Source: Woeseia sp. (GTDB taxonomy: Bacteria > Pseudomonadota > Gammaproteobacteria > Steroidobacterales > UBA11654). From it: a stretch of 64,000 bases of DNA. This document shows positions 3,339-38,477 of this stretch, one piece after another; the first letter of the stretch is position 1, and each line of letters begins with the position of its first letter. The notes beneath the pieces were generated by a model, which saw nothing but the letters and a program-made list of their open reading frames with translations, was not told the DNA's origin and ran no database searches. The stretch lies in the NCBI GenBank assembly GCA_019653755.1, contig BPCL01000004.1, positions 71,578 through 135,577 on the forward strand, written 5' to 3'. The translations under genes were made by a program, and so were the position numbers.

Positions 3339-3356
3339 ATTTATCACTTGATCAAT
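3339..3356. promoter_or_regulatory. Palindromic operator copy 1, ATTTATCACTTGATCAAT
   Basis: Matches ATTTATCA-N2-TGATHAAT; in the divergent TBDR/flavo-oxidase intergenic region. Confidence 0.8.
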
Positions 3357-3392
3357 AAAATATAAAATAATTATTAAACAAAGGCAAAGTTT

Positions 3393-3410
3393 ATTTATCA
3401 TTTGATTAAT
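3393..3410. promoter_or_regulatory. Palindromic operator copy 2, ATTTATCATTTGATTAAT
   Basis: Same motif, same divergent intergenic region. Confidence 0.85.
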
Positions 3411-3517
3411 AAGGAAAAAAGTATAGACTTTCATTCCTAAGAAAAATCTTTAATTTTTGGTACAAAAAAGCCTAAGATAAATCAAGTTACAATATCAATT
3501 CTGGAGTCTAACTCACC

Positions 3518-4993
3518 ATGAAAAGACGAGATTTTATTAAGCATGCAGGGCTACTATCTGTGGCCTCTCATATCCCAATTAGTCGCGCGTCAATACATGA
3601 TATTCAAGCTCTATCATTGGAGGGCAATGAAATCGTGCTCAAAAAAACTGATATTCTTGAATTCATGTCTAGCTTCCAAGGAAGCGTGATCACAAAAGAA
3701 CATTATGATTATGACATGGCTAGATTGGTTTGGAATGGAGTTTGGGATAAGCGCCCTGCTCTTATAGTCTTTTGTGAATCTAGCTCAGATATCCAAAAAG
3801 CGATTAATTTTTCAAGAGAGCAGAATCTAATAACTGCTGTCCGAGCTGGCGGACATAGCATTTCAGGAAAATCAACTTGTGATGGAGGCATTATTATTGA
3901 TCTTTCGCGGATGAGAAAAACCAGCGTAGATCTTCAAAGAAAAATAGTTACTGTTGAGCCAGGGTGTACCTTATACGACATGGACTCAAAAACACTGCCT
4001 CATGGATATGTTGTTCCTGCCGGTGTTGTTTCTCACACTGGAGTTGCTGGTTTAACCCTAGGTGGAGGCATAGGATCATTGATGAGAATGTATGGGCTTA
4101 CAATTGATAATCTGATAAGCGTTGACATCATCACTGCTGACGGTGTCATGAGGAAAGCAAGTAAAGATGAAAATCCGGATCTTTTTTGGGGAATTAGGGG
4201 TGGCGGAGGTAATTTCGGTATAGTCACCTCCTTTGAATACAATCTTCGCCCGCTTCCCAATGGAAAGGTTATTGTGGGAGTGAACCTTTATGACCTTAAG
4301 TATGCTAAAGAAATCTGGGATTTCTACTACGATTACTCAGAGGATCTTTCATCTGACATTATGCTCAATGCAGGAATGTGGAATGTTACTCAAGGTGAAG
4401 GCTACTTTTTTCTAGGAACTCTATTTCTAGGAGATGAAAATAAAGCAGACAAAGCTTTAAAAACAATAAGAAATTTTGGAAAACCTCTATCAGATGATGT
4501 GTCAAAAAAAGATTTTATCGAGCATCAACAAGTTGCTGATAAGAGAAACGCTCATTATAGAAACTATTATGTGAAAGGAAGACATATAGATGAATATGAT
4601 CCTAAATTGACAGAAAATTTGATGGACGGATGGATGGGTGTAGAAGGTCGATTTGATACCATGCGTGTGGTACGTTTTGGAGGAGCGATTGCCGAAGTTG
4701 CTGAAAATGAGACAGCATGGGTAGGAAGAAATGCTAAATGGGATATTGAAGTGGGTGGCCACTGGAGCGATAGAGAAAAAAATGAGGAATACACTCAATG
4801 GGGAAGAGACTACTGGAAAAATCTCACACCGTATTGTGCAGAACGAATATACATCAATGAATTAATGGATGAAGACCAAGACTTTGTTGCTACCAGCTAT
4901 GGTCAGAATTATGGGCGACTGGTGGAAATAAAAAATAAATACGATCCAAAAAATCTTTTCAGACTCAATGGCAACATTAAACCCAGCATTTGA
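3518..4993 (+). CDS. Tat-exported FAD-binding oxidoreductase, VAO/berberine-bridge (6-hydroxy-D-nicotine oxidase-like) family
   Basis: MKRRDFIK twin-arginine signal; RAGGHS covalent-FAD motif; GLTLGGG; RGGGGNFG; C-terminal BBE motif KYDPKNLFR. Confidence 0.9.
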   Translation: MKRRDFIKHAGLLSVASHIPISRASIHDIQALSLEGNEIVLKKTDILEFMSSFQGSVITKEHYDYDMARLVWNGVWDKRPALIVFCESSSDIQKAINFSREQNLITAVRAGGHSISGKSTCDGGIIIDLSRMRKTSVDLQRKIVTVEPGCTLYDMDSKTLPHGYVVPAGVVSHTGVAGLTLGGGIGSLMRMYGLTIDNLISVDIITADGVMRKASKDENPDLFWGIRGGGGNFGIVTSFEYNLRPLPNGKVIVGVNLYDLKYAKEIWDFYYDYSEDLSSDIMLNAGMWNVTQGEGYFFLGTLFLGDENKADKALKTIRNFGKPLSDDVSKKDFIEHQQVADKRNAHYRNYYVKGRHIDEYDPKLTENLMDGWMGVEGRFDTMRVVRFGGAIAEVAENETAWVGRNAKWDIEVGGHWSDREKNEEYTQWGRDYWKNLTPYCAERIYINELMDEDQDFVATSYGQNYGRLVEIKNKYDPKNLFRLNGNIKPSI

Positions 4994-5017
4994 ATTAGTA
5001 ATTTCAGCTAAACTATA

Positions 5018-5686
5018 GTGATGAACATTAATTTCCATGACCTAATGGCGTTTTTTCATGTGGTTCTTTTTGTCTATGCCATTGGGGGAGATATCGCTGT
5101 TTATTATATAGGTAACTACATTACCAAAGATGAACTCAGTATTGAGGAAAGACTCAGAGTCAGATCTATGCGTTTTCTTGTGGATATGTCTGCTAGAACT
5201 AGCTTGGTTCTATTGTTACCTATTGGATTTACCTTAGGGACAACCTTTGGTTCAGAAATTGATGGGGCTAGCCTAACAATCATATGGATGTTTAGCTTCT
5301 TTTGGCTAGGTCTGATTTGGATGGTCCATCTTAAAAAAGATACAGAAACAGGAGAACTCTTAAGAAAGCTCGATTTATTTATTAGGTATCTGCTCTCTTT
5401 TGTTTTAATTTCCTTGGGAGTTTTCTGTCTTATCACAAATCAAATTATTCAAAGCAACTGGCTCGCATGGAAAGTCATAATTTTTGGGTTAATCCTCATA
5501 AATGGGATCTGGATAAGATCTATAGTTGGAAGGATGCGATTTTCGATCAAGCTAGCTCAAAATCTGGAAACTAAATTTGAAGGTGAGCAATTAATTAAAA
5601 ACGATCAATCCATGTTAAATAAAGCCGCCTTACTCATATGGATTTTAGTAATCCTTATGGCATTCTTAGGTGAGCTAAAACCTTGA
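5018..5686 (+). CDS. Integral membrane protein, possibly HemJ/CopD/DUF2269-like
   Basis: About 6 hydrophobic helices, His in TM1 (FHVVLFVY), WLAWK, C-terminal KP; family assignment tentative. Confidence 0.6.
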   Translation: MMNINFHDLMAFFHVVLFVYAIGGDIAVYYIGNYITKDELSIEERLRVRSMRFLVDMSARTSLVLLLPIGFTLGTTFGSEIDGASLTIIWMFSFFWLGLIWMVHLKKDTETGELLRKLDLFIRYLLSFVLISLGVFCLITNQIIQSNWLAWKVIIFGLILINGIWIRSIVGRMRFSIKLAQNLETKFEGEQLIKNDQSMLNKAALLIWILVILMAFLGELKP

Positions 5687-5730
5687 TAAAAAATGAGTAA
5701 TATATCAAGTAAAATACCTATTTAATTTTT

Positions 5731-7202
5731 ATGGAGACTAAATATCTTGGCCCTTATAGATCATTGAGAGAATATCTTGATGCGTTAGAATATTTTGAAC
5801 ATGTGCTCCATATTGACACGATTAATCAAGATAGATACGAAGCTACAGGCTTGATGTATCGACTAATTGAAAAATTTAATAACCAAAAAGCCCCGGTTTT
5901 ATTTTTTGATAAAATTCATTCTAAAAATAAAATATTCAAAAACTCATCGGTTGGTAATTTATTTGGTAAATGGGATATCGAAGCAATAGCTCTTGGAATC
6001 GAGCCAACTGGTAACTCAGGGAAGAACTATAAATTAGCGGTAAAAAAAATTGAACAACACATAGGTAAAGATGGAAAATGGCCCACCATTAAACCCGTAA
6101 TCATTGATGCAAAAAATGCACCTTGTAAAGAAAATATTTTGCAAGGAAAGGATATAGATCTTTTTAAATTTCCCTTTCTTCAAACCAACCCAGCGGATAA
6201 TGGATGTTACATCAATACAGGCAGCGTTATTCTAGAGCATCCTAAATTAGGAAGAAATGTCGGTACATATCGTTGCCAAATAAAGAATCCGACAAAAATT
6301 GGGATTAATCCTCAGGTGAATCAAGATGGATGGAGATTCCTTGATGAATTAAAGAGACAAGGTGAAAAAACTGCTCAAGTTGCAATTGCAGTAGGAACTG
6401 ATCCAATCACTTTTTCAATGAGTGGTTCAAAAGTAGCAAAATTTGGTGAAGATGAATTAGAAATAGCAGGTGGGCTTATTGGCGAACCAATAGAGATTAT
6501 TAAATGTGAAACCAGCAATATCTATGTTCCTGCTCATGCCGAACTTATAATAGAAGGTGAGATTCCACTAGACAAAATGGAAACAGAGGGTCCGTTTGGA
6601 GAAATGTACGGTTATATAGGTGGGAAAAAAGAGGAAAACTTCTTTATGAATGTCACATCAATAACACATAGAAATAATCCAATTATCCCGAATCAGTTCA
6701 CTGGTATCACCCGGGGCTGTCTAACTGCTCCAATTGAAGCGAGTTTAAACAATAAGTATCGCACACATTTCGAAGATTTCATTGGGCTTTACTATCCATT
6801 AGAATTTCCAGGTTTCTGTTTTATCAATCTAGAAAAAACCTAAAGCTAAAAAAGCATTCGAAATTGGAAAATATATTTCAACATCATTGAAAATCGCCAA
6901 AATAACTGTTCTTTTTGATAAAGATGTCGATATTCATAACTTAAATGAAGTGCTTCATGCCCTCGGATCAAGATGGCAGCCTCAAAGATCCACAAAAATG
7001 ATTGAGAATGCACCTGCATTAAGCGGTGATCCTAGCTCCATTAAGAAAGGGGAAGGCAATCGGGTAATTATTGATGCGACTAGGAATGCCACAGAAAGTC
7101 AGCATGATAAATCATTTTCGAAAATGAACATTGAATGCCTAAAAAGCGAGTTCCCAGAGCTTTTAGATGGGATTGATGAAAAAATTTAAGGAAATTATTT
7201 AA
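5731..7202 (+). CDS. UbiD-family (prFMN-dependent) decarboxylase, split by probable sequencing frameshift(s)
   Basis: NVGTYR, VPAHAELIIEG and EGPFGEMYGY motifs; continues in ORF 6887..7189 (DVDIHNLNEVLHALGSRWQP, IIDATR) after an A-run near 6840. Confidence 0.88.
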
Positions 7203-7835
7203 CTACTTTTTATCAGCAGTTAGACCTGTTGTCGCGATGTAGTTAACAACATCTTTGTACATTTGGTCACTGAACATTAGCGCTGTATCCCTCATTTGCT
7301 TTCCATAGAGGTCTTCTGGATGATCGCCTCTTATTCCCTTTTGAAAATTAATAAGCTGTTGATATAGATACCAATCACTTTGCCCAGTTAGCCTAGGTGC
7401 ACCAATGGTTTTATCACCTTCTCCAAATTCTCCATGACACGACATACAGTGATCAAAGACAAATTTACCTGTTCCTATATTTCCCTTGATAGTCACCGCT
7501 TGTTTTTTAGCAGTCATATTCGAAATGTATGTTGCAAGTGCCTCAAGTTCGCTGTTGCTCATATTGATGATACTTAATCGCATCGTTTGCCCAAAGACAT
7601 CCTCGGGATCAATGCCTCTAATGCCATCTTTATAATTTTTAAGTTGTCGATAAGAATACCACTGACTTAATCCAGCTATAGAAGGCGCATTTAAATCTTT
7701 ATTTCCTTGAAGCTGAGATCCATGACAAGTCTGACATAAAGCTATTGATTCTGGTTTTTTTGCATTGTCGGCATGCAAGTTATTAAAGGGGATAAGTATG
7801 AAAATAATCAGTAAAAATACTTTTGATTTAATCAA
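7203..7835 (-). CDS. Periplasmic diheme cytochrome c (c4-like)
   Basis: Signal peptide; two CxxCH motifs (CQTCH, CMSCH); duplicated AP.LxG...Y..QL..G.RG domains. Confidence 0.92.
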   Translation of the reverse strand: MIKSKVFLLIIFILIPFNNLHADNAKKPESIALCQTCHGSQLQGNKDLNAPSIAGLSQWYSYRQLKNYKDGIRGIDPEDVFGQTMRLSIINMSNSELEALATYISNMTAKKQAVTIKGNIGTGKFVFDHCMSCHGEFGEGDKTIGAPRLTGQSDWYLYQQLINFQKGIRGDHPEDLYGKQMRDTALMFSDQMYKDVVNYIATTGLTADKK

Positions 7836-8838
7836 TGTTTTTCTACCTCTCTCATCACTCTAAAACCAAAATTTATGTAGCGAGTATCCTTATTATTTGA
7901 TTGATCTGACTGAAAACCATAATGGTTTGATGACCTAAGATATATCGGCATATCGTAATAGGATGCACCCCTTAAAATGGGTCTATTACAGTCTCCGTTT
8001 AATCTTGAAGAACCATCTGATGGTGCATTTGTATAGGAATCGTGCCAGCAATCTTGCACCCACTCAGCAACATTACCTAAAATATCAAAAATACCAAAGG
8101 CGTTGGGTTTAAAAGTACCCACTGGGGCTGATGTAGCAAAACCATCATGACAGTTTGCAACCTTCCAATTTTCCGGCAATACAATCTTAGTTTGCCTAGC
8201 TTGCATTTCCTCTAAAAAAGCCTCAGGTGTGATATCTAGATCAGCTCCGTTTGCAAAATCACACCCTTCTTCTTGATCTCCCCAATAACGAATAGTGTTT
8301 GTTCCTGCACGAGCAATGTACTCCCATTCTGATTCAGAAAAAAGTCGATAAGTGAATCCGGTATGTTGCGATAGCCATGCTACGTAAGCCTGTGCGTCAT
8401 TCCAACTGACACAGACTACAGGATGATGATCTGAAACTGGGTAACCTGGATTAAACCAATCTGAAGTTTTTGAAAGCTGTATGCCTTGCTCTGTTGCGCC
8501 ATAACAACCGCCTGACATATCATAGCCTGTGATCTCAATAAATTTCTGAAACTCGACTCTTTTAACCTCAAACTGACCGGCTGCAAAAGAATAATCTATG
8601 CTAACTTTGTGTACGGGTCTCTCATCTTCTCTTGATCCTTCGACATCGGATGATGATCCCATCAAAAAGCTACCTGGCTTTATTACCACCATTACAGGAC
8701 AATCTTCACAGTCCTGAATATTTTTCCCTTCATGAATTAATCTGTAGCTTGTAGATCTATAGTGAAAAAATAGATTAAGAAAGATATAAGAATTAATTTG
8801 CCTTGAATTGAATCAAAGTGGCCATTTAAGAGTTTCAT
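7832..8838 (-). CDS. Secreted FGE-sulfatase (SUMF1/EgtB/PvdO-like) domain protein, frameshift near 8740
   Basis: DCEDCPVMVVI, HPVVCVSWNDA, SESEWEYIARAG, PNAFGIFDILGNVAEW, GFRV; signal peptide MKLLNGH...LILISFLIYFFTIDLQA starts at 8838 in another frame. Confidence 0.85.
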
Positions 8839-8842
8839 CTTC

Positions 8843-10660
8843 CTAATCAGTTATATAGTCAATAAGGTCCTTATAGCTTACTGGTTCCTTATCATGAGAT
8901 CCAACTAAAGACTCAATTGGTATAGCGAATTTAATGATTGCATCGTTCAAGGATGTAGCTGAATGATAAGGTAAAACATCTGGTCCTCTCTTGGTACCTG
9001 ATCTTTTATCACGTGCGATACCACTTACATACAAATCACCAGCATAAAGCATCTTTTTGTTATCAATTACAGCAATGACCATATCCTCCGTATGCCCGTT
9101 CAGAATTGGATAAATAGTCATTGGTTGCAAAGTGTCTTCTATTGTATAGCCTTGATCTGGGTTTACTTGGATGATTTGCTCGCTTCCTTTTTTAAATTTA
9201 CGATCGAGAGCGTCAATAACAACTGATGATTTTGGTCGATTGATTTGCATGCTGTAAAATTCCTTGGCTGATTCATGCACAACCAAGGCGGCTCCTGCAG
9301 CTATGTATGGGCGAATTCCTCCCCCATGATCATTATGAAAATGAGTAGCAATTAAATGCGTTATAGGCTTATCAGGAAATTTATTCATCGCCCATTTGAT
9401 CACCTCTTCACCTTTTAAATCGTTCATTCCAGGCTCAACCACCACCAGCCCATCGCTTTGCTCAACAACCATGGTATATATGCCATCCAGTGGTTTAGCT
9501 GATAATAAATAAACTCCATCGTCTAGTTTCAAAGCATCAAGCTTAGGACGACTAGCACCAGAGAGAGTAAACATTCTCAATGTTTGACTGAGAGTTCTAC
9601 CACGTTGTGCTGAATTCTCATCATGAACATAGGCCACACTATCTGGGGGTGAAAAATGATCTAGTGAGTAGTCAGGGTTAACTTCGATTGTCTTTCTGGT
9701 AATCTCTAATCGAGGTGCGCCACCTTGTGACATCCTGACTGTCCTTGGAAAAAAAACACCGCTATAAATCTGCCAATCGTCATATGTAACTTCGAGTGTT
9801 ATATCTCCATAAATTACATCCCATTCCATGGTTTTGAGTTTATCTATCTTTGATGTTTGCGGATTAATAAAAAAAGTTATCGGGTACACCTCATTTTTTA
9901 TAGTCAACTGAATATAATCTGACTCATCAATATCGGTGTTTTTTTGCCACCTATTAAACCAGTCAGGATCATCGAGAATTTTATTAATCATTAATGGATA
10001 AAAAGTTTTTTTGCTTGCTTGTCGCTCCCATTCTTTGGAGGCAATAAGAGTCCTTTTCCCAGTTTGTCTAACCCTATCTATGGTTACAGGTAAGACTTCA
10101 TCTTCTTTGTATCTCCAGCCCTTATTCAAATTTGCTGTTAATTTTAGATCTAATACCAAACTTGAATCTTGCAATGCCTCCTTTATCAATATATGAGGAT
10201 TTAGCAATCTTTCAGTTCTCATAGCTGCTGCTGATTTATCAGAGGAAAGGGGCTTATCTCTTTCCTTGACTATACCCATGATGTCATTTTCACTTACGTA
10301 ACCCTCTTGACCAAGTAGAAGTGTTTTAATTTCATTTTCAAAATAGCCGCCTTCTCTTGCTGCAACTAAATTTATCAGGCCAATTCTCACAAATCCTTGC
10401 TTAAGATCGTGAGACGCTCTAAAAATAGGCGCAGAGATTCTAAACATACCTTTGCCTGGTTCTGGGCTCTGCCCCATGATGTATTCATCTCGCTCACTCT
10501 CAATTTTATAGCCCTCTAATTGTCGAATCACATCAGCTCCTCCTAACCCTTCTAGAGCATGAGATAAACTATCTTGCTCATTATTATCAGAAGAATGAGC
10601 ATGAAGATTTAGTGTAAAAACAGATAGAAGGATGGTGACCTTAAGAATTGTTGCTCTCAT
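8843..10660 (-). CDS. Secreted metallo-beta-lactamase-fold hydrolase with long N-terminal domain
   Basis: Signal peptide; THFHNDH, GHTED, AGDLY and GSH metal ligands in the C-terminal half. Confidence 0.85.
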   Translation of the reverse strand: MRATILKVTILLSVFTLNLHAHSSDNNEQDSLSHALEGLGGADVIRQLEGYKIESERDEYIMGQSPEPGKGMFRISAPIFRASHDLKQGFVRIGLINLVAAREGGYFENEIKTLLLGQEGYVSENDIMGIVKERDKPLSSDKSAAAMRTERLLNPHILIKEALQDSSLVLDLKLTANLNKGWRYKEDEVLPVTIDRVRQTGKRTLIASKEWERQASKKTFYPLMINKILDDPDWFNRWQKNTDIDESDYIQLTIKNEVYPITFFINPQTSKIDKLKTMEWDVIYGDITLEVTYDDWQIYSGVFFPRTVRMSQGGAPRLEITRKTIEVNPDYSLDHFSPPDSVAYVHDENSAQRGRTLSQTLRMFTLSGASRPKLDALKLDDGVYLLSAKPLDGIYTMVVEQSDGLVVVEPGMNDLKGEEVIKWAMNKFPDKPITHLIATHFHNDHGGGIRPYIAAGAALVVHESAKEFYSMQINRPKSSVVIDALDRKFKKGSEQIIQVNPDQGYTIEDTLQPMTIYPILNGHTEDMVIAVIDNKKMLYAGDLYVSGIARDKRSGTKRGPDVLPYHSATSLNDAIIKFAIPIESLVGSHDKEPVSYKDLIDYITD

Positions 10661-10697
10661 ATTTTTCCCTTAATGATTCCTTGATGACTTATATCTT

Positions 10698-10715
10698 ATT
10701 TATCATTTGATTAAT
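10698..10715. promoter_or_regulatory. Palindromic operator copy 3, ATTTATCATTTGATTAAT
   Basis: Identical to copy 2; divergent intergenic region. Confidence 0.85.
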
Positions 10716-10788
10716 TAGCAATATGCATGTGGCTTTTTTTATTATATTCTTTAGTAAAGCTAGAACATAATATCAACAGATTAACTTT

Positions 10789-11523
10789 ATGAAATATTTA
10801 GGTAGGCTTTTAGTATATAAATACTTAGAAAGATTTTTCGTAAAGGTTTGTTTTGCTCTTTTCCTAATCACCCCTAATGTCTTAGCAGATTATGATGAAA
10901 CAATCTTGGTTATTGGAGGCACCGGTCGTGTGGGCTCAGAGATTGTTAAAATCTTACATAAACAGGGATATAAAAATATTTCTGTCTTGAGTAGATCTGA
11001 TAAAAATAGATCTCGATTAAAAGACCTAAATATTAGATACCTAAAAGGTGATATTTTGTCAGAAGAAGAGATTAAAGAAGTGTTCTCAGACAATTCTTTT
11101 GATGTGGTTATAAATGCCGTTTCTAAAGTTGGTAAAAGCAAGAACCCACATGCAATCGGGCAAGCTAATCTTAGTAAGTGGTCTAAAATAAATGGCACTA
11201 AACATTTTATCTTAATCGGTTCTGTTGGCGCAGGGCCTAACCCAAAAGATAATATGTGGAGAGATATATTAATAGCCAAGGGTGAAGCGGAACAATCCCT
11301 AATTTATAGTGGCTTGGATTATACAATTATTAAAACAGGTATTATCATCTATGATGATACACCAGCTACTAATCAAGCATTTCTAAGTGATAATGTAAAT
11401 ATTGTAGGTAAAGTTACTAGAAAAGATTTGGCTTTATTGAGTGTAAACTGCATTTTAAATAATAATTGCTTGAATCTTACATTAAATGCAGTTGATGACT
11501 CTTTAGGTTCAATGGCTAACTAA
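10789..11523 (+). CDS. Atypical SDR / NAD(P)H-binding protein with predicted signal peptide
   Basis: GGTGRVG Rossmann motif; KGEAEQSLIYSGLDYTII; hydrophobic N-terminus ending VLA. Confidence 0.8.
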   Translation: MKYLGRLLVYKYLERFFVKVCFALFLITPNVLADYDETILVIGGTGRVGSEIVKILHKQGYKNISVLSRSDKNRSRLKDLNIRYLKGDILSEEEIKEVFSDNSFDVVINAVSKVGKSKNPHAIGQANLSKWSKINGTKHFILIGSVGAGPNPKDNMWRDILIAKGEAEQSLIYSGLDYTIIKTGIIIYDDTPATNQAFLSDNVNIVGKVTRKDLALLSVNCILNNNCLNLTLNAVDDSLGSMAN

Positions 11524-11580
11524 AATGGTATTTAAAAGGAGAGAGATCCTTTATAGAGAAAGATAATTAGTCGTTCTCTT

Positions 11581-11598
11581 ATTTATCATTTGATAAAT
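11581..11598. promoter_or_regulatory. Palindromic operator copy 4, ATTTATCATTTGATAAAT (perfect arms)
   Basis: Perfect 8-2-8 palindrome 40 bp upstream of the second flavo-oxidase. Confidence 0.9.
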
Positions 11599-11638
11599 TA
11601 TATTTGAGTGTTATTATCCTCTAAATAAGGTTGAAAAT

Positions 11639-13129: not shown

Positions 13130-13218
13130 TATCAAAGTTCCAACTACATCATAAAAGCCTACTGGTTGCAGATATGCAAAGCTTGGAATAATTTTTATTA
13201 TCAAGAACCCATCCAAAG

Positions 13219-14888: not shown

Positions 14889-14897
14889 AATAAATTC

Positions 14898-15455: not shown

Positions 15456-15506
15456 AAAATAATCCTTTATTTTTGCATTAATATTATTAAAGAACAAAAC
15501 AAATGT

Positions 15507-16369: not shown

Positions 16370-16384
16370 TATTATATTTTCCTT

Positions 16385-16402
16385 ATTTATCAGTTGATAA
16401 AT
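16385..16402. promoter_or_regulatory. Palindromic operator copy 5, ATTTATCAGTTGATAAAT
   Basis: Perfect arms (extends to TTATTTATCA-GT-TGATAAATAA); divergent metF/ligase region. Confidence 0.9.
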
Positions 16403-16425
16403 AAAGAGTATATTATAAATCTTTT

Positions 16426-16443
16426 ACTTATCAAATGATTAAT
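16426..16443. promoter_or_regulatory. Palindromic operator copy 6, ACTTATCAAATGATTAAT
   Basis: Second site in the same intergenic region. Confidence 0.8.
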
Positions 16444-16460
16444 AGATACTTTATTCAGAA

Positions 16461-18410: not shown

Positions 18411-18452
18411 CTTCATCGTGAAATACAATTAACATAAAAAGACACAACAAAT

Positions 18453-19489: not shown

Positions 19490-19498
19490 GAGAAAGCC

Positions 19499-20930: not shown

Positions 20931-20967
20931 AGTTGCTATATTATCCCTAGCTACTTTGGAGAAAAAA

Positions 20968-23259: not shown

Positions 23260-23278
23260 GGCAAAGCAAGGCGTTCTA

Positions 23279-24056: not shown

Positions 24057-24091
24057 TAATAACCAAATCGAAAAATAAGAGATAAATAACA

Positions 24092-25234: not shown

Positions 25235-25243
25235 TTAAGGTTT

Positions 25244-30412: not shown

Positions 30413-31285
30413 CTATTTTCCTTTCATATAATCAATTATCTTTACAGCATCTTCATGCATAAATCTCTCTTGCTTGATCGCCTCGGAATAGACCTCAAAA
30501 GAGGATTGTGTTGTCGGTATATTAATCCCCATCTCTTTTGCAGTGTTCAAAATCACAGAAAGATCTTTGACCATGCTTTTCATGTCAAAAGCTACAGGCA
30601 TATCTTCACCCATCATAATCGGTATTTTCATTTTTAGTACAGCAAGTGCAGCTGAGCTATCAGCAATCGCATCTAACATCATCTCATCACTTAGACCGCC
30701 TGACTTTCCAAGGAGCACTGATTCAGCTAGCGCTTGCCAGTATATTGCCAATGGAAGATTGACAACCAGTTTCAATAACGATCCCGATCCAGTCTTACCT
30801 GCATGAATCACCCTTCGTCCAAGAATATTAAGGTAGGGTTTTGCTTTGGTAATATCTTGGGTATTGCCTCCACAAAAGATTAGTAATTCTCCTTTTGCAG
30901 CAGGAGCAACTGTTCCTGATACAGGAGCATCAATGAAAGCTCCTGATTTCTTTTTGATTTCGTTGGCAATGCTTGATGTCGTCTTAGGCATGATAGTGCT
31001 CATATCAATAAATAAGCGATCTGTTACATCGCCACTCAGCAGACCCTTATCGGATAAAAATATTGACTCTACTGCATTATCATCACTCAACATGGTAAAA
31101 ATAAGATCAGAATTTTTTGAAACCTCTGAAGGAGTTTCTGCCACCAATGCGTCCATCCTTCTCAAAGGTTCTGTTTTCTCTACGCTGCGATTGTAAACAG
31201 TCAGTTTATGGCCCGCTTCTATAAAAAGAGGCGCCATTACAGAACCCATCTTACCTAAACCAATAAAACCAATGTCTTTTCTCAT
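30413..31285 (-). CDS. 3-hydroxyisobutyrate dehydrogenase-like (beta-hydroxyacid dehydrogenase family)
   Basis: GLGKMG, YNRS, IDMST, DAPVSG, KLVVN. Confidence 0.9.
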   Translation of the reverse strand: MRKDIGFIGLGKMGSVMAPLFIEAGHKLTVYNRSVEKTEPLRRMDALVAETPSEVSKNSDLIFTMLSDDNAVESIFLSDKGLLSGDVTDRLFIDMSTIMPKTTSSIANEIKKKSGAFIDAPVSGTVAPAAKGELLIFCGGNTQDITKAKPYLNILGRRVIHAGKTGSGSLLKLVVNLPLAIYWQALAESVLLGKSGGLSDEMMLDAIADSSAALAVLKMKIPIMMGEDMPVAFDMKSMVKDLSVILNTAKEMGINIPTTQSSFEVYSEAIKQERFMHEDAVKIIDYMKGK

Positions 31286-32572
31286 TCAATCTTCACGTGG
31301 TATGTATGCAATAAGGTCCAAAAGAGTATTTGCACCTTCTAAAACCATCGAATCATTCAACCCAATTGTAGTTGAAGCTGGTTTATCCGATGGAAAATAT
31401 CGTGCCCATTCCTCGATTGATTCAGCAAACCACTGCAGATCATTATGAAAGCAAGCTCTTCTAACAATATTTTCAACTGAAGACCCTGCTGATTCTGCGA
31501 TAGCATTGATATTAGTCATCATATATCTCATTTGAGATTGAGCAGGTCGTCCATACCATGGGGCTGCTGAATTTCTTGTCATGCCCTCAGCAATATTCCC
31601 TGATGAATCAAATGCCATCTGAGTACTGTAAAATAAGAGTTGCCCTACTTGGATAGCCTGAGGTTCATGACCAAATGGCTCGGGAGCATCAGATGTTTCA
31701 ATAGATTTTTTCTTTAACTGTGCGTCGTTAGTTAATGCCATTAAGGAAACTTCGACTTTTGCTTTGCTATGATTCATGCCTGACCTAGGTAAAACAAAAC
31801 GTGCTGGAGGGTTAGGAAAATGTTTTTTCCATATTTCATCCATCAACTTAAAATCATTGGGATCAACAATAAAAACTTCTGCCTTCACTGAATTCTCAAG
31901 TGAGGATCCAGCTTGCTCAAGCAATTCTGAAGACTTGCTGATCACTAGCTCCAATTGCTCTTCAAATGTATCTGCAATATAACCGTCCTTATCGGTAGGT
32001 GTCTGGTTTGAAACGAAAACCCACTCTCCTTTCTTTAAAGCATCAGACCCAAGTGAATTAGGGTTGAGGCTATAATGACTAACCTCATCATTAGTCTTAT
32101 AGCACATGACTTCCAGCTCTACTTTTGTGCCAACCCACATCAATTCTTTTATACCTATAGTTGACCTAGTCGGCCCTATAGAGAAAGCTTTCTCTAATAA
32201 TTTTTCATAGGTATGTATGTCTATGTCATGCGAAAAAAGACCTTCTGGATCATTTTCTAGATTGGGTCTATCTGAAACAAACCATTCCCAGATTCTTACA
32301 CTGTCTTCAGACATATTCAAACCAGCGGCTTGAACAGTTTGAGCCATATTCCCTAACACAAACTCTGATTGCATACCTAACCCTGTGGAAGGGTCTTTAT
32401 CCTCTGGTATTAGATTTTTTGGTACACCGGTTTTAAAATCACTAGCAAGCTGACCTGCAATAAAAACCCAATCACCGACTTTAACTGCTGGCGAGTATGG
32501 CATTACAGGCTTAGGAACCCCTTCTTCTAAGCCAGGCCAGATTGCAATTGGCGTATTGTCATCCTTTTTCAT
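31286..32572 (-). CDS. RidA/YjgF-family protein with three tandem domains
   Basis: PYSPAVKVGDWVFIAGQ / GEWVFVSNQ / QAIQVGQLLFYSTQ; AGSSLENSVK and AGSSVENIVR repeats; 428 aa. Confidence 0.85.
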   Translation of the reverse strand: MKKDDNTPIAIWPGLEEGVPKPVMPYSPAVKVGDWVFIAGQLASDFKTGVPKNLIPEDKDPSTGLGMQSEFVLGNMAQTVQAAGLNMSEDSVRIWEWFVSDRPNLENDPEGLFSHDIDIHTYEKLLEKAFSIGPTRSTIGIKELMWVGTKVELEVMCYKTNDEVSHYSLNPNSLGSDALKKGEWVFVSNQTPTDKDGYIADTFEEQLELVISKSSELLEQAGSSLENSVKAEVFIVDPNDFKLMDEIWKKHFPNPPARFVLPRSGMNHSKAKVEVSLMALTNDAQLKKKSIETSDAPEPFGHEPQAIQVGQLLFYSTQMAFDSSGNIAEGMTRNSAAPWYGRPAQSQMRYMMTNINAIAESAGSSVENIVRRACFHNDLQWFAESIEEWARYFPSDKPASTTIGLNDSMVLEGANTLLDLIAYIPRED

Positions 32573-32661: not shown

Positions 32662-32679
32662 ATTTATCAACTGATCAAT
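32662..32679. promoter_or_regulatory. Palindromic operator copy 8, ATTTATCAACTGATCAAT
   Basis: Divergent RidA/LLM intergenic region, 25 bp from the LLM start. Confidence 0.82.
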
Positions 32680-32704: not shown

Positions 32705-33781
32705 ATGAAATTATCAATGTTCACAATGCCGTTGCATCCACCTTCTCGTGATTATCACGAAGTGCTCGAGGAGGATAGAGAGGCCATTATTTATGCTGAT
32801 ACATTAGGTTTTTCAGAAGCTTTTATAGGCGAACATATAACTGATCGTGCCGAACCAATAACATCATGCCTAATATTCATAGCCAGCCTAATAGACTCAA
32901 CAAACCAAATCAAACTTGGGAGCGGTACTGTCAATCTACCTAATGCTCACCCCGCAACGATCGCAGCTCAAGTTGCTATGATTGATAATATGCTAGAGGG
33001 TCGCTTTCTATTCGGAATAAGCCCTGGAGGGCTTCTCTCCGATGCAGAGATATTTGAAAATTTAGAAAATGATAGAACAGAAATGTTCGTTGAGTCTATA
33101 AATCATATTCTAGACATTTGGTCTAAACCAGCTCCCTATAATCTCGAAGGTAAATATTGGAACATTACAACTGAAAAAAACTTTGTTGAGGAAACTGGTC
33201 AAGGCATTATTGTGTCCCCATTCCAAGATCCTCACCCTCCAATAGTGGTTACTGTAGTAGCCCCTTTCTCAAAAGGCATTGTGTCTGCAGCTGAAAGAGG
33301 CTGGGAACCAATTTCAGCGAACTTTTTACAACCAAATTGGGTAGCTTCACATTGGCCTATGTACCAAAAAGGTTGTGAACAAGGGGGTTATGAGGCAGAC
33401 CCTAAAAATTGGAGAGTGGCAAAGAGTATTTTTGTAGCTGATGATGAAAAGACTGCTCAAGAATATGGGAAAGGTGAGGATGGTCCTTATAATTTCTACT
33501 TTAAGCAAATAATGAAGAAATTGATCGGCAATGGAAGACCAGACCTTTTCAAGCACGATAGAGACATGCCTGATTCTGATGTAACGCTAGATTATGTCCT
33601 TGATTCTATGGTGATCTGTGGCACCAGTGAAAGTGTAGTGGAGCAAATTGAAGCATTTAAAGATATTACAGGAGAATTTGGAACACTTGTTTACGCTGCC
33701 CATGATTGGGTTAATCCTGAGCTTTCAAAAAGGTCTATGGAGCTAATGGCGAATGAGGTAATGCCAAGACTCAATAAGTGA
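32705..33781 (+). CDS. LLM-class (luciferase-like) flavin-dependent monooxygenase
   Basis: GFSEAFIGEH, IKLGSG, HPATIA, GRFLFGISPG, PFQDPHPPI, SMELMANEVMP. Confidence 0.92.
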   Translation: MKLSMFTMPLHPPSRDYHEVLEEDREAIIYADTLGFSEAFIGEHITDRAEPITSCLIFIASLIDSTNQIKLGSGTVNLPNAHPATIAAQVAMIDNMLEGRFLFGISPGGLLSDAEIFENLENDRTEMFVESINHILDIWSKPAPYNLEGKYWNITTEKNFVEETGQGIIVSPFQDPHPPIVVTVVAPFSKGIVSAAERGWEPISANFLQPNWVASHWPMYQKGCEQGGYEADPKNWRVAKSIFVADDEKTAQEYGKGEDGPYNFYFKQIMKKLIGNGRPDLFKHDRDMPDSDVTLDYVLDSMVICGTSESVVEQIEAFKDITGEFGTLVYAAHDWVNPELSKRSMELMANEVMPRLNK

Positions 33782-33783
33782 CC

Positions 33784-34551
33784 CTAACTAGCCTTTAGGA
33801 AGCTAATCACTTCATTCAAAAATTTTTCTTGCTGTTCCAACACTGATAGGTGTTTTGCATCAGTTAACCATTTGACTTTTGAGTTTTGTATGTTTCTTTC
33901 AAACCAATAAGCCGCGTCCCTAAATAATATATTGTCTTGGTCACCGCAAAGAATTAGTGTTTCTGATTTAATCAAAGACGTGGAATCTTCTAAATTACAT
34001 GCAGATAGAGCTTCACAAGCTTTTGCGTAAGATTCACCATTCATCTTAGATATTGTGGCTCTACAGTAATCAATTACTTGATTATTTGCTTCCAGATAAT
34101 CCTTTGTGAAGAAAGCATCTAGAAACTGATCAATCATATCTTGAAGGCCTCCCTCTCTTGCTTTTGCTGCTCTCTGAGTCCAGTTGGCTTGCCATTCTTG
34201 TGAATATTTATTTGTGGTGCTAACCAGGATTAATTTATTAATAATGTCAGGGTTCTTAGCTGCAAAATCCTGAAGAATCATCCCGCCAATAGAAAGCCCC
34301 AAAAAATCGGCATCCACTATTCCAAGATCAGTCAATGAAACTTTCAAAGAATGTGATAAATCTTCAATACTATAGTTCTGTTCTGAGTGAGGACTTAAAC
34401 CATGACCAGGCAGATCATAGGTCATAACGGTTCTATATTTTGAAAGCTCACCTAAACAATAATCCCAAGTACGATGATCTAGGCCTAAAGGATGAATCAT
34501 AATTAGAGGTCGCCCTGATCCTGAACTAAAAAACTCAATAGAATCAGGCAT
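33784..34551 (-). CDS. Alpha/beta hydrolase (PcaD/RutD-like)
   Basis: IHPLG, YDLPGHG, GLSIGG nucleophile elbow, GDQD, AKHL. Confidence 0.88.
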   Translation of the reverse strand: MPDSIEFFSSGSGRPLIMIHPLGLDHRTWDYCLGELSKYRTVMTYDLPGHGLSPHSEQNYSIEDLSHSLKVSLTDLGIVDADFLGLSIGGMILQDFAAKNPDIINKLILVSTTNKYSQEWQANWTQRAAKAREGGLQDMIDQFLDAFFTKDYLEANNQVIDYCRATISKMNGESYAKACEALSACNLEDSTSLIKSETLILCGDQDNILFRDAAYWFERNIQNSKVKWLTDAKHLSVLEQQEKFLNEVISFLKAS

Positions 34552-34553
34552 CT

Positions 34554-35450
34554 TTACTGACTTTTTTCCTGATCAGAAGCTCTTAATACTTCCATGACAG
34601 AAGCGGTATCTAATTCATTCAGATCTAGCTCTTCTGCTTTTTTGTAAAGTTGTTCTGTCATCTTAAAAAGAGGTGAATCAATCTCATGGTTATCAAGCAT
34701 ATCCCTTATAAGCTCCATATCTTTCTTCCAAACATTCATTTTCATTGATGCTGGAGAATAATCCTTGGCAATCATCATCGGCGCCCTTAATTCAAAAATT
34801 TTTGAAGTAGCCGCACCTGACGAAATTACCTTATAGAGTTCATTTAAATCCAGACCACTTTTTTCACCTAACCTTATCGCCTCGGCAGAAGCAACATTGT
34901 GAATAGAAACCAATAAATTAGCGATAAGCTTAACCTTTGTTGCGTTTCCAAAATCCCCCAAAAAAAAGGACTCTCTTGAGAATGTCTCAAGAACGGGTAA
35001 TGCCATTTCATAGGATTCCTTTAAGCCACTGGCATACATAACAATATCCTTATTCTCAGCCTGCCTGCCAGTTCCACTTATTGGGCAATCGAGGATGTCG
35101 ACATTAATTGCATTCAATCTTTCTTGGTTCTTTATTTTGCATTCAAGACTAAGGGTGCTGGTTTCGATGAGAAGCTCTACTTTTCGATTGTCTTGTTGAA
35201 TGATCAAATCAATAGTTTCATCAAGAGCTTTGTTATTTGGCAAAGAGGTAATAATAATTGATGATTGATCTATGATTTCTTTTAAAGATGAAGAAGTGTT
35301 TAAACCCTCATGATTTAATGTATCTATTATTTTTTGATCAATATCAAAACCTATTGGGCTAAATTCTGAATCATGAATATTTCTTAATATCGATGATCCA
35401 ATAATTCCTAAGCCGATAAGACCGATTTTTTTTGTATCAGTTTTTTCCAT
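34554..35450 (-). CDS. Beta-hydroxyacid dehydrogenase family NAD(P)-dependent oxidoreductase
   Basis: GLGIIG, ETSTL, DCPISGTG, KLIANLLVSIHN, WKKDM. Confidence 0.88.
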   Translation of the reverse strand: MEKTDTKKIGLIGLGIIGSSILRNIHDSEFSPIGFDIDQKIIDTLNHEGLNTSSSLKEIIDQSSIIITSLPNNKALDETIDLIIQQDNRKVELLIETSTLSLECKIKNQERLNAINVDILDCPISGTGRQAENKDIVMYASGLKESYEMALPVLETFSRESFFLGDFGNATKVKLIANLLVSIHNVASAEAIRLGEKSGLDLNELYKVISSGAATSKIFELRAPMMIAKDYSPASMKMNVWKKDMELIRDMLDNHEIDSPLFKMTEQLYKKAEELDLNELDTASVMEVLRASDQEKSQ

Positions 35451-35467
35451 CTAGGGTGTTGTTTTGA

Positions 35468-36124
35468 CTAAGACTCAAGATCCTCAATCTTAAATTTTTT
35501 AGAGCCTTCAAGAATTATCTTTACAGAAGTCAAAACAATTGTCTTGAAATCATTTAATACCTTGCTGTGATAAATATTTTTTCTGATTGCGTAATAAAAT
35601 AAGCCGCCATGCAACACCCAAACTCTTTCTAATTCGAGAGGGGTTATTGGGTGCTTTTTTATACTTGGTTGACCACATTCATGTCTTATCTCTTCACATA
35701 TTGGCTTAAGAAATTCATCCTCGACAATTCTAATGTATCTCCTGTTCATAGAATTGCCCATCAGCCCTGAATACATGTAAATCCTTATCCATTCATACTG
35801 ATGAACAATCTTTGCGTAAGAAATATAATAATCAACTAGTCTTTGTTCCAACGAAACAGAGCGGTCTTTAAGATTTGATGACCATTCAGGTTTAATCCAG
35901 TTAAGGTAAACCTCCTTAAATACCCTTTCAATTAGGTCATCCTTGGTTGGAAAATATCGATATAAAAGAGGTTGAGTTATGCCAATTCTTTTTGCAAGAT
36001 CTCTGGTTCTTCCATTGAAACCAAATTCAGCAAAGAACTGGACAGCCTCATCAATTATTTCCTGCTCTCGGTCACTTGGGGTTAACCTTTTTTTTGGTTT
36101 TAATTTAGTAAGCTCTGGCACCAT
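35468..36124 (-). CDS. TetR/AcrR-family transcriptional regulator
   Basis: FAEFGFNGRTRDLAKRIGITQPLLYRYFPTKDDL helix-turn-helix. Confidence 0.93.
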   Translation of the reverse strand: MVPELTKLKPKKRLTPSDREQEIIDEAVQFFAEFGFNGRTRDLAKRIGITQPLLYRYFPTKDDLIERVFKEVYLNWIKPEWSSNLKDRSVSLEQRLVDYYISYAKIVHQYEWIRIYMYSGLMGNSMNRRYIRIVEDEFLKPICEEIRHECGQPSIKKHPITPLELERVWVLHGGLFYYAIRKNIYHSKVLNDFKTIVLTSVKIILEGSKKFKIEDLES

Positions 36125-36130
36125 TTCTAT

Positions 36131-37120
36131 TTACTTTACTGGTTTTTGTTCTATCGAGTAAAGCTCTAAACTTGAAAGACTAGGTGTTTTTGGATCATAA
36201 GTTTCCGGAGCTGTAAAATACTTTGGATAATGCTTCTCAACATAATCCAATACTTGCCTGCTATGGACTTCCTCCAAATCCTCTCCTGAGCCCATAAAAG
36301 CAGAATATAGCATCTGACCTGGCTCTTGTCCCATCAGCATCCAGGGCAAGAAAGGAGTAATTCTCCCCCAAGTACCATTAAACGGTAGAGTGGTATAACT
36401 TGGGTCCTGCATCTGCTTGGCATCAACATGGAACGCAAACATTTCAGAAACTGTCACCATTGGACCGCTTGATTCTCTTACCCACTTCTTAGGATCAAGC
36501 GCATTCGGATAAAACAGATTGATATGAATCTCCATATCTATCCGGTTACCGCGCTGTTGCCAAGGAAGAATAAACGGTATTCTAGGCGGTTCTTCCTCAT
36601 TGAGTCCGCCAAATTTTGGTGGCGCAGGGAAATAATCTTCAATCACATAATTAAACGGATCATTAGCAATATGAACAACATCGACTGTCTCATTTGTCAT
36701 TGGATTCTTCCATTCTTCCAAGACTTCACCGCTTCTGAGGTCAGTGTAGAGGCCAACCTCTCTTAATATTTTTGCATAAGAGCCATCGGCTTGTTGTTCT
36801 AATCTAGAAACACCAAATCCCTCAATACCAACACAATCAATAATCGGTTTGTTTGGCCTCAAAGCCATGATGTAACCTTTGAACCATCCGTATTTCTGTT
36901 TTGACTGATCCAAATCACCGTTCATCCTAGAATAGGCAATTTTATTATCTGGGCCTTTAGATAAATCCAAATAAGGACCATTAAGAGCCTCTCCTCTAGC
37001 TCCCCCATAAGCTGCGGCTTGATCTGCGTGTGCCTTTTCAGAAAGCAACCCTAATGTTGCAGCACTTGCGCTAAGTGCGCCTAAATTTCCAATGTTCTTA
37101 AAGAATTGTCTTCGTTCCAT
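36131..37120 (-). CDS. DUF1838 family protein with Tat signal
   Basis: MERRQFFK...AHA signal; REVGLYTDLRSGEVLEEWKNPMTNETVDVVHIANDPFN; RITPFLPWMLMG. Confidence 0.8.
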   Translation of the reverse strand: MERRQFFKNIGNLGALSASAATLGLLSEKAHADQAAAYGGARGEALNGPYLDLSKGPDNKIAYSRMNGDLDQSKQKYGWFKGYIMALRPNKPIIDCVGIEGFGVSRLEQQADGSYAKILREVGLYTDLRSGEVLEEWKNPMTNETVDVVHIANDPFNYVIEDYFPAPPKFGGLNEEEPPRIPFILPWQQRGNRIDMEIHINLFYPNALDPKKWVRESSGPMVTVSEMFAFHVDAKQMQDPSYTTLPFNGTWGRITPFLPWMLMGQEPGQMLYSAFMGSGEDLEEVHSRQVLDYVEKHYPKYFTAPETYDPKTPSLSSLELYSIEQKPVK

Positions 37121-37131
37121 TATGTAAACCT

Positions 37132-38391
37132 CTATGAATTCATACTATTTTTTCCACGCTCAGAGAATAACAATACTAGCGATAAGATTAAAAGTGCAAG
37201 ATTAGCAAATCCCACCATTGTGAAGGGTGCGGTTGGACCGACGTTATCAAATAACCACCCGCCAATAACGGCAACTAAAAGAATACCAATTGCACCAAAG
37301 AAACTAAAACCACCAATGACAGCACCCCGACCTTTTGCCGGTGCTGCACTACCTATCAAGGATATTGCTGAAATGTTGGCAAAAATTTCTCCCAAGCCTA
37401 AAAGCGCTGCACCAAAATACATTTGGGTACTGAAAATATCATCAATAAAACCTAAATAGAGGTACCCGCATGCAGCAATAGCCATCGAAATAGCTAAAGC
37501 CATGACTCGATCGACTTTATCTATGAAGAAATTGATCAAAACTGCTCCGGGTATTGCAAAAGCTTGAACCATCACATAAAACCCCGTTGATAGTTTAAAT
37601 GCTTCTGCTCGAGACATATCCATAGAGATAGCTTCATTGAATAGCCATAGTGAGAAAAAGGTACTAACCACAGATAAATCACCTCTCGATACCACTCCAG
37701 CAGTATATGCAAGTGCGACTCTTGGGTTTTTAGCTTCCTTAAATGCAATTCCCAATGTTGAAAAATAAGACCCTTTCTTAGTCACCTGAGCAGGCGCACC
37801 TTTCTTCAAATTGGTGAAAAGTACTGTCGAAACAATTAAAACCATTACTGCGGCACACCATATTGTGTATTGACCAGAGAGCGCACTATCATAGCCTTGA
37901 TTAACAAAATATTCTGGGAGCCTTCTAAAGCTACCTATGATGAGCACTAAGCCTAATCCGTTCATAATTGATGTGGTTGCGATGAGTTTCCCTCTTGTGC
38001 TCTCATGTACATAATCATTCGCAGTGGTGGGCAACATAACTGTATTGCAAGCACAACCTAGAGCAATAAAGATACGGAATATGATGAGTTCAGTGCTGTC
38101 TCCTGCAAGCGGATAAAGAAAGTAGCCTATACCAAGAAGAACAAAACCCATGGAATAAACAATCCTTCTTCCCACTTTATCTGATAATGCACCAAACAGC
38201 CCGATCACACAGACCACGACTATCTCTTGCATAGCAGTCAACTTTCCTGCTAGAGCCCCTGTCTCATTTTGAGGAATCTCAAGAATATTAAACACCAGTG
38301 GGCCAAAGACATTTACTAATGCCATGCTGGCGATACCAAAGAATGCACCAAAAAATAATGTGAAAAGATGCCGCTTTTCTATATCCGGCAT
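37132..38391 (-). CDS. MFS transporter
   Basis: GALSDKVGRR motif A; about 12 TM helices. Confidence 0.92.
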   Translation of the reverse strand: MPDIEKRHLFTLFFGAFFGIASMALVNVFGPLVFNILEIPQNETGALAGKLTAMQEIVVVCVIGLFGALSDKVGRRIVYSMGFVLLGIGYFLYPLAGDSTELIIFRIFIALGCACNTVMLPTTANDYVHESTRGKLIATTSIMNGLGLVLIIGSFRRLPEYFVNQGYDSALSGQYTIWCAAVMVLIVSTVLFTNLKKGAPAQVTKKGSYFSTLGIAFKEAKNPRVALAYTAGVVSRGDLSVVSTFFSLWLFNEAISMDMSRAEAFKLSTGFYVMVQAFAIPGAVLINFFIDKVDRVMALAISMAIAACGYLYLGFIDDIFSTQMYFGAALLGLGEIFANISAISLIGSAAPAKGRGAVIGGFSFFGAIGILLVAVIGGWLFDNVGPTAPFTMVGFANLALLILSLVLLFSERGKNSMNS

Positions 38392-38459
38392 AGAGTTATG
38401 GGGCCAAATTTTATCCCCATTTCTTCAATATTGTTCTTTGACGATTCCATTGGTTGATT

Positions 38460-38477
38460 CATAATCACTTGATAAAA
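38460..38477. promoter_or_regulatory. Palindromic operator copy 9 (weaker), CATAATCACTTGATAAAA
   Basis: Core ATCA-CT-TGAT conserved; divergent region that drives the MFS-DUF1838-TetR operon. Confidence 0.65.

Follow-up and report, generated by a model that had tools for sequence, protein, structure and literature searches.

The question raised by the stretch of DNA treated here is which protein, if any, reads a palindrome that recurs in front of the genes of a catabolic island. The stretch, called the window below, consists of 64,000 nucleotides of a draft genome of Woeseia sp. (contig BPCL01000004.1, positions 71,578 to 135,577; G000:C4:71578-135577 in our numbering of genomes and contigs). 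The draft, G000, has 1,513,456 bases on 17 contigs and is 88% complete. A preliminary description of the window listed nine copies of an 18 bp palindrome and assigned them to the TetR-family regulator encoded at 35468–36124 on the minus strand. The sites are specific to the island, are conserved, and are associated with relatives of this TetR across taxa. Sequence comparison makes it very probable that the palindrome is the operator of this TetR, and that the protein represses the island units and is released by a small molecule.

The palindrome, ATTTATCA-NN-TGATAAAT, is 18 bp in length and has the core TTATCA-NN-TGATAA. The pattern as first written has six exact matches in the window, against 0.00 expected from 100 shuffles. 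With up to three mismatches, the full palindrome occurs at eight places (3339, 3393, 10698, 11581, 16385, 16426, 20913 and 32662), of which 16426 has two mismatches and 20913 has one. A scan of the whole genome, which the preliminary description had proposed as a check, gives seven matches with at most one mismatch, all of them inside window positions 3339–32662 (29 kb), and the reversed pattern gives none. A matrix made from the eight sites scores them at 22.0–26.7 bits, and the next scores in the genome are 18.8 and 17.0; the matrix was trained on these sites and fits them by construction, and the independent support is that from other genomes. The block at 45–64 kb had been described as free of copies, and its sole match of at least 6 bits scores 6.5 bits at 54464.

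All eight sites are intergenic and lie upstream of transcription units, as had been said of every copy, with gaps of 15–107 nt to the flanking start codons. The two divergent promoters that were described as carrying paired copies do so, with 3339/3393 being 54 bp apart and 16385/16426 being 41 bp apart. Over 39 sites from the family, positions 3, 5–7, 12–14 and 16 are invariant. Position 4, degenerate in the first pattern too, is T, A or G, and so is its mirror, position 15. The similarity among sites stops at the 18 bp.

The ninth copy does not hold, and eight remain. The sequence at 38460, CATAATCACTTGATAAAA, has four mismatches and scores 6.4 bits, which is background level (about 189 genome matches reach at least 6 bits). 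Its opening CAT is the conserved start codon of an MFS gene in relatives, and the closest relative, G009, does not share the sequence; the same is true of G007 and G002. Two candidates for regulon members outside the island, C2:52257 (18.8 bits) and C7:59091 (17.0 bits), were also rejected, as both are inside coding open reading frames. A reading of C2:52257 as a match to the ATTTCTCAAYTGATAAAT sites of G017–G019 was wrong; the match in G018 is inside the orthologue of a 903-amino-acid open reading frame (window 53732–56443).

For ease of description the eight sites are numbered here as putative operators. Operator 1 (ATTTATCACTTGATCAAT, 3339–3356, 23.6 bits) is 71 nt upstream of the TonB-dependent receptor gene, which is on the minus strand, and has an orthologous site in G006, G002 and G015. 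It pairs with operator 2 (3393–3410, 24.9 bits), found 107 nt upstream of FAD-linked oxidase 1. Operator 3 (10698–10715, 24.9 bits) separates the gene of a 605-amino-acid MBL-fold protein (minus strand) from that of a 244-amino-acid NAD-binding protein (plus strand) and is conserved in G006, G007 and G002. Operator 4 (11581–11598, 26.7 bits) has perfect palindrome arms, is 40 nt upstream of FAD-linked oxidase 2, and forms a conserved block in seven of seven aligned spacers. Operator 5 (16385–16402, 26.1 bits), 15 nt upstream of the true start of the MetF-like gene (16369, minus strand), pairs with operator 6 (16426–16443, 22.0 bits), 17 nt upstream of the acetoacetate-coenzyme A (CoA) ligase gene. 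Operator 7 (20913–20930, 23.7 bits) is directly 5′ of a conserved TGnTATATT, similar to an extended −10 element, before the CoA-transferase operon. Operator 8 (32662–32679, 24.5 bits) is between the genes for a triple-Rid protein (minus strand) and a luciferase-like monooxygenase (plus strand), and is the most widely conserved position.

Conservation upstream of orthologues, a second proposed check, was followed in the islands of G001, G002, G005, G006, G007, G009, G015, G017 and G019 at a threshold of at least 18 bits. Sites are present at orthologous spacers in all relatives compared per spacer. The spacer between the luciferase-like monooxygenase and triple-Rid genes has a site in seven of seven relatives, that upstream of FAD oxidase 2 in six of six, and that upstream of the CoA-transferase in five of five. 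The spacer between the acetoacetate-CoA ligase and MetF-like genes retains its pair, 40–41 bp apart, in five of five, and those between the NAD-binding and 605-amino-acid MBL-fold genes and between FAD oxidase 1 and the TonB receptor have a site in three of three each. Proteins of the sister species with orthologous sites are 45–97% identical. The spacers have diverged except at the sites, which form their conserved blocks. In three spacers aligned from 6–7 genomes, no block of invariant positions exceeds the palindrome arms in length, with the centre being variable; six of six sequences have the −10-like TGnTATATT after the site that precedes the CoA-transferase operon. In the family as a whole, 12 of 19 other genomes have a match with at most one mismatch, usually several per contig.

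Operator pairs 46 bp apart, with perfect palindromes among them, are found in L129, L137 and L138 (62–64% GC; labelled Rhodospirillaceae or Alphaproteobacteria). Pairs at fixed spacing (40–41, 46 and 54 bp) suggest that two dimers may bind co-operatively.

The proposed binder is marked by its domain, its fold model, its orthologues and its co-occurrence with the motif. The protein has 218 amino acids and belongs to the TetR family by its PF00440 match (48.8 bits, cut-off 24, residues 23–68). An AlphaFold2 model from 13 sequences (pLDDT 81, pTM 0.72) has 11 helices in an all-alpha TetR fold, and all listed Foldseek matches in the PDB, at TM 0.49–0.67, are TetR-family proteins or are titled transcriptional regulators, in keeping with a two-domain TetR fold. 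All 13 aligned orthologues, with overall identities as low as 46%, have the same recognition helix, ITQPLLYRYFPTK. TetR_N is the only DNA-binding domain among the scanned island proteins, and the whole genome has three TetR_N matches. The protein does not belong to the named subfamilies with which it was compared. The RutR equivalogs TIGR03613 and NF011584 give 27.3 bits against 368 and 26.7 against 230, in the helix-turn-helix (HTH) region only, the tetracycline repressor equivalog NF010319 gives 27.6 bits against a cut-off of 265, and the LuxR/HapR/OpaR equivalog NF040929 gives 27.9 against 350.

The distribution of this TetR follows that of the motif. Among 401 genomes of the order, with an orthologue taken at E ≤ 1e-30 and a motif match at no more than one mismatch, the TetR orthologue is found in 14 and the motif in 23. 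Thirteen of the 14 TetR-positive genomes have the motif, compared with 10 of 387 TetR-negative genomes; for two or more matches the counts are 11 of 14 and 2 of 387. Outside the family the motif is in three of four TetR-positive and 7 of 377 TetR-negative genomes. Within it, the orthologue is present in 10 of 19 genomes, each of which also has the motif; among the nine others, six are without a match and three have one or two. The other two TetR proteins of G000 are present in 15 and 18 of the 19 family genomes, motif-free genomes among them. The TetR and the island travel together in the family, and therefore position weighs more than co-occurrence.

With respect to position, the sister genus has a site directly upstream of the TetR-holding operon (G019, 19.0 bits; G017, 18.5 bits). 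In G235, from another family and with 54% GC, a site is about 50–110 nt upstream of TetR. G199 (56% GC) has a site where the TetR operon and the triple-Rid gene diverge, and two more sites on another contig among homologues of island genes; in G021 (59% GC) sites precede the homologues of the triple-Rid and 605-amino-acid MBL-fold genes. A palindromic operator close to the regulator gene, as looked for in the TetR family, thus appears to be present in these relatives, where sites are directly upstream. In the Woeseia genome itself the operator nearest to the TetR gene is that at 32662, which is 2.8 kb away.

A wider sample extends the association. A scan of one genome per species yields at least 588 stretches that encode relatives with the word ITQPLLYRY. 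The best 80 of these loci, which are from Alpha-, Beta- and Gammaproteobacteria by record titles, have 45–91% identity and 35–70% GC and total 819 kb; sites were sought within 6 kb of the TetR relative. There are 69 sites of at least 12 bits in 48 of the 80 loci, against three in three loci for a reversed matrix of the same composition, and 38 loci reach 15 bits against one for this control. A site is found no more than 350 nt upstream of the TetR gene in 16 of the 80 loci, against none in the control. Several of the 80 loci have no other gene in common with the window. The assignment of the palindrome to the TetR at 35468–36124, as first proposed, is thus well supported, on comparison of sequences, by site conservation, co-occurrence, placement beside TetR relatives and an invariant recognition helix.

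The commonest neighbour of the TetR relatives in the 80 loci is a HIBADH-like dehydrogenase (35 loci), and the luciferase-like monooxygenase is in 27, with a median identity of 68%, the CocE/NonD hydrolase in 22 and a Rid protein in 13. In other lineages, the regulon has a conserved trio of genes that is not in the window, encoding an M24 creatinase/prolidase-like protein, a zinc alcohol dehydrogenase and a protein with PPDK_N and PEP-utiliser domains (G019:C4:21212-24896, G199:C40:9674-13550 and G235:C11:6236-10747; L046/L047, L057 and L059). The G235 locus additionally has an FAA hydrolase and a TRAP DctM transporter.

Several points weigh against the assignment. It rests as a whole on sequence comparison. 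In this genus, an operator of at least 14 bits was not found upstream of the operon holding the MFS transporter, DUF1838 and TetR genes, and hence the autoregulation that is classic for TetR-type repressors is missing here; it is suggested by sites in other lineages only, and the regulator would be made constitutively, together with a transporter. No site of at least 12 bits is found within 6 kb in 32 of the 80 loci; some of these contigs are short, and the matrix derives from a single AT-rich genome. G216 (49% identity) is TetR-positive but lacks any match with at most one mismatch, and there are 10 TetR-negative genomes with one or two matches. Four of these matches were inspected (two in G004, one in G012 and one in G018), all of them outside the island. 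The two of G004 are in other spacers and the remaining two in coding sequence, as is the single match of G005:C9. It should be pointed out that relatives are not independent, and that with TetR and island being co-inherited, co-occurrence in the family by itself cannot single out this TetR. Lastly, promoter-like hexamers are not enriched (65, against 63.0 in shuffles), and the overlap of operators with promoters is a reading and not a result.

Could a real operator be bound by a factor that is encoded elsewhere? The strong sites are all confined to the island, a pattern that a global regulator would not give. Fur, whose AT-rich box is similar and also contains TGATAA and TTATCA words, might be suggested by the TonB-dependent receptor among the targets. 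The other two TetR proteins are candidates as well, given that in this genus no operator was found to precede the operon of the island TetR itself, but their presence in 15 and 18 of 19 family genomes includes genomes that have no motif. In addition, the sites directly upstream of relatives of the island TetR in 16 of 80 distant loci, some of them in unrelated gene contexts, point to the island protein. On this comparison, which covered the TetR proteins of the genome, binding by another factor is very unlikely. As to a repeat that binds no protein at all, be it a shared promoter or UP-like element, a relic left by a small mobile element, or a product of chance in AT-rich spacers, the exact dyad symmetry and the invariance of the arms in 39 family sites argue against it, as do the abrupt end of similarity past 18 bp and the shuffles, which predict 0.00 matches. 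The half-sites do resemble −35 (TTGATA) and −10-like words and form part of some of the top promoter-like matches, but an AT-rich word is kept beside the TetR relative in genomes of 54–70% GC, with 69 sites against three for the reversed matrix. An unbound repeat is extremely improbable.

A different doubt concerns what the TetR does at its sites. It might be an activator or a dual regulator in the manner of LuxR, HapR and SmcR, and not a ligand-released repressor. The best PDB matches are of this type (sequence E 2.9e-8; fold TM 0.64), which also counts against the proposal, as such proteins both activate and repress; LuxR is described as activator and repressor in PMC2628434. However, the similarity is weak, with 19–21% identity and an equivalog score far below the cut-off of 350 bits. 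The sites abut or overlap −10-like elements and are 15–40 nt from several start codons, which is where a repressor would be expected. A local catabolic island is also, from established knowledge of the family, the usual setting of TetR repressors that are released by a ligand. Activation or dual regulation is accordingly quite unlikely.

On the preferred reading, in which the TetR encoded at 35468–36124 is a ligand-released repressor, we infer binding, repression rather than activation, a dimer stoichiometry and an inducer. A TetR dimer would bind each operator, and the paired sites, being 41 and 54 bp apart, would hold two dimers on roughly the same face of the helix. The operators may be on or directly upstream of the −10/−35 region, 15–107 nt from start codons, where bound TetR would block RNA polymerase and thereby repress ten transcription units. 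The repressor would be released by a small molecule, probably a substrate of the island or an early intermediate. Uptake through both membranes would be regulated in this manner, by way of the TonB-dependent receptor in the outer and MFS_2 in the inner membrane. The regulated enzymes would include the Baeyer–Villiger-like luciferase-type monooxygenase, the CocE/NonD and alpha/beta hydrolases, the Rid protein, the FAD oxidases and the UbiD-like decarboxylase, and besides these the CoA ligase, the CoA-transferases, the acyl-CoA dehydrogenase and the DUF1838 proteins.

The proposed pair resembles TetR/tetO in having a TetR-family HTH protein and TATCA/TGATA operator arms, as well as paired operators on the promoters of divergent genes and, in the model only, release by a small ligand. 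The form of tetO used in this comparison is the canonical 19-base string, which appears to be in use in print. There are several differences. The centre is 2 bp here and 1 bp in tetO, ten transcription units are involved here and two genes there, the regulator's own operon in this genus is without an operator, and the two proteins are similar in sequence only over the HTH region (E 1e-4), with an equivalog score of 27.6 bits against a cut-off of 265.

The preliminary description had compared the layout with that of the RutR box, and the likeness is real. RutR is also of the TetR family, its box is likewise a 7-2-7 palindrome with the same 2 bp centre, and five of the seven half-site letters are common to both; the Woeseia protein is not a RutR orthologue. 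The RutR box string that had been quoted occurs in at least one place in PMC2475637. The targets are also partly alike. As in the RutR/Rut system for pyrimidine utilization in Escherichia coli, they include enzymes of the luciferase-like monooxygenase and alpha/beta hydrolase types and a Rid-family protein, and there are weak RutC and RutD matches here. However, the monooxygenase in the window is nearest to a diketocamphane Baeyer–Villiger enzyme, with no RutA among the matches listed, and the CoA ligase and transferases, FAD oxidases, UbiD and DUF1838 proteins of the island have no Rut counterpart.

Among solved proteins, LuxR, HapR and SmcR are nearest in sequence (E 2.9e-8, residues 9–117) and in fold (TM 0.56–0.64), and are described, in PMC2628434, as binding an AT-rich operator with dyad symmetry. 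Unlike the TetR here, with its sharp palindrome and one island, they are global regulators of hundreds of genes with a degenerate site of 21–22 bp. A parallel in organization is offered by KstR and KstR2 of actinobacteria, which govern catabolic TetR regulons of many operons, with one TetR repressor and one palindromic box for the operons of a catabolic island. The operator and the protein subfamily differ (KstR2 PDB match E 3.7e-6, HTH region only).

The island itself is a dense catabolic and uptake region at 625–40983. For uptake it encodes a TonB-dependent receptor and two MFS transporters. The redox proteins are two FAD-linked oxidases, a cytochrome c, an FAD_binding_2 flavoprotein, the luciferase-like monooxygenase and two HIBADH-like dehydrogenases, and the CoA-related proteins are acetoacetate-CoA ligase, a double CoA-transferase and an acyl-CoA dehydrogenase. 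Hydrolytic functions are represented by a CocE/NonD hydrolase, a PcaD-like hydrolase, a lactonase-like protein and a TRZ/ATZ-type amidohydrolase. There are also a UbiD-like decarboxylase, an FGE-domain protein, two MBL-fold and three DUF1838 proteins, a CMD-family and a MetF-like protein, an Asp/Glu-racemase-family protein and the triple-Rid protein. Two proteins without a family resemble a membrane protein and a hemerythrin-like protein, and these are leads only.

The eight sites precede ten transcription units comprising about 26 genes at 625–33781, with units taken from orientation and spacing. Unit 1, on the minus strand, is the TonB-dependent receptor gene alone (625–3267; inferred from orientation). 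Unit 2 (3518–7189, plus) encodes FAD oxidase 1, a membrane protein of 222 amino acids and the UbiD-like decarboxylase, which is split in this assembly. Unit 3 (7203–10660, minus) has the MBL-fold protein of 605 amino acids, the FGE-sulfatase-domain protein and cytochrome c, and is followed on the plus strand by the NAD(P)-binding protein of 244 amino acids (unit 4, 10789–11523) and FAD oxidase 2 (unit 5, 11639–13129). Unit 6 (13219–16369, minus) consists of the MetF-like gene (split), a CMD-family gene and two DUF1838 genes. Unit 7 (16461–20906, plus) encodes acetoacetate-CoA ligase, an MBL-fold protein of 268 amino acids and the FAD_binding_2 flavoprotein (split in four), and unit 8 (20956–28016, plus) encodes a fused double CoA-transferase III (split in three), an alpha/beta hydrolase (split), acyl-CoA dehydrogenase, the MFS_2 transporter and the amidohydrolase. 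Unit 9 (28017–32572, minus) has the triple-Rid, HIBADH-like dehydrogenase, CocE/NonD (S15) hydrolase and Asp/Glu-racemase-family genes, and unit 10 (32705–33781, plus) the luciferase-like flavin monooxygenase gene. The regulator-holding operon (33784–38462, minus), upstream of which no operator was found in this genus, encodes the MFS transporter, a DUF1838 protein, TetR, a HIBADH-like protein and the PcaD-like hydrolase.

The closest solved relative of the luciferase-like monooxygenase is 3,6-diketocamphane 1,6-monooxygenase (E 4.4e-33), which suggests oxygenation of a ring followed by hydrolysis. The triple-Rid protein (31286–32572) has 428 amino acids in three tandem Rid (RidA/YjgF) domains and, beside the operator, has 50–88% identity across four families of the order. 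The three DUF1838 paralogues of the island are at 13219–14888 and 36131–37120, and homologues adjoin TetR in G021 and G199. We know of no function for the DUF1838 family. In the literature searched, supplementary files being outside its scope, DUF1838 is apparently mentioned only in passing, and the motif strings were not found in any paper. Likewise, no paper in that literature combined at least five of the six cluster terms.

Island genes whose counterparts in relatives are intact are interrupted by at least nine frame breaks. These are at 6840–6857, 16190–16205, 19623–19648, about 20011, 20388–20391, 22007–22017, about 22471, 23473–23475 and about 38392, and affect the genes of the UbiD-like and MetF-like proteins, the FAD_binding_2 flavoprotein (three breaks), the double CoA-transferase (two), the alpha/beta hydrolase and the N-terminus of the MFS protein. 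The sucC gene at 50752–51833 is likewise split. Contigs from other public runs have indels of 1–2 bases at 19631, 20009, 20388, 22005/6 and 22469/70, the same places as the breaks, and thus the breaks may be assembly errors in this draft or decay specific to the strain. Contigs labelled as marine metatranscriptome, from four runs and at least 99% alike, cover parts of several genes within 3001–23000. Since one run is probably DNA, the others may contain DNA too, and contigs show neither starts nor levels, no conclusion on transcription or regulation is drawn from them.

In one species of the genus the island is gone. G008 (L028, G008:C5:17642-20758) keeps the MFS gene, the DUF1838 gene and the first 40 or so codons of TetR, followed by the gene that in G000 is to the left of the window. 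The deletion, of about 35 kb, extends from inside TetR to beyond the TonB receptor and removes all operator positions and regulated genes, and G008 has no motif matches. This clean loss of every operator together with every regulated gene indicates that the regulon behaves as a flexible island. The view that the shared box shows seemingly unrelated operons to belong to one pathway can be kept in part. The operons are inherited and deleted as a unit and are probably co-regulated; a single pathway is not established by this.

The finding is solid, though its type is familiar: it is a putative local TetR repressor whose regulon is unusually large and island-wide. The organism has presumably been met only in metagenome-assembled genomes, which are of about 1.5 Mb and encode very few regulators. 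What makes the finding of interest is how large the regulon is for a local TetR at this genome size, how many unknown genes it groups, and how broadly the regulator–operator pair is conserved. The operator provides a testable grouping of about 26 genes, with three DUF1838 proteins, two proteins without a family, and MBL-fold and FGE-domain proteins among the products. It also marks the limits of a flexible island, which some species of the genus carry and another has lost by a clean deletion. As the pair recurs at 35–70% GC in three proteobacterial classes, one binding experiment would annotate hundreds of loci; the pair is portable and could be used to look for the inducing compound.

A broader view can be put forward tentatively, as one that falls somewhat short of probable. 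The TetR and its tetO-like TTATCA-NN-TGATAA box may be a widespread, uncharacterized pair of the Proteobacteria (at least 588 loci with ITQPLLYRY), the ancestral targets being a module that cleaves a ring compound. This module would consist of a Baeyer–Villiger-like luciferase-type monooxygenase, a multi-Rid protein, a CocE/NonD hydrolase and a beta-hydroxyacid dehydrogenase. In a marine lineage with small genomes, the box may then have spread to ten promoters, so that one local repressor switches a whole flexible island of 35 kb. If true, this would give a direct handle on three DUF1838 proteins and on an unrecognized marine substrate.

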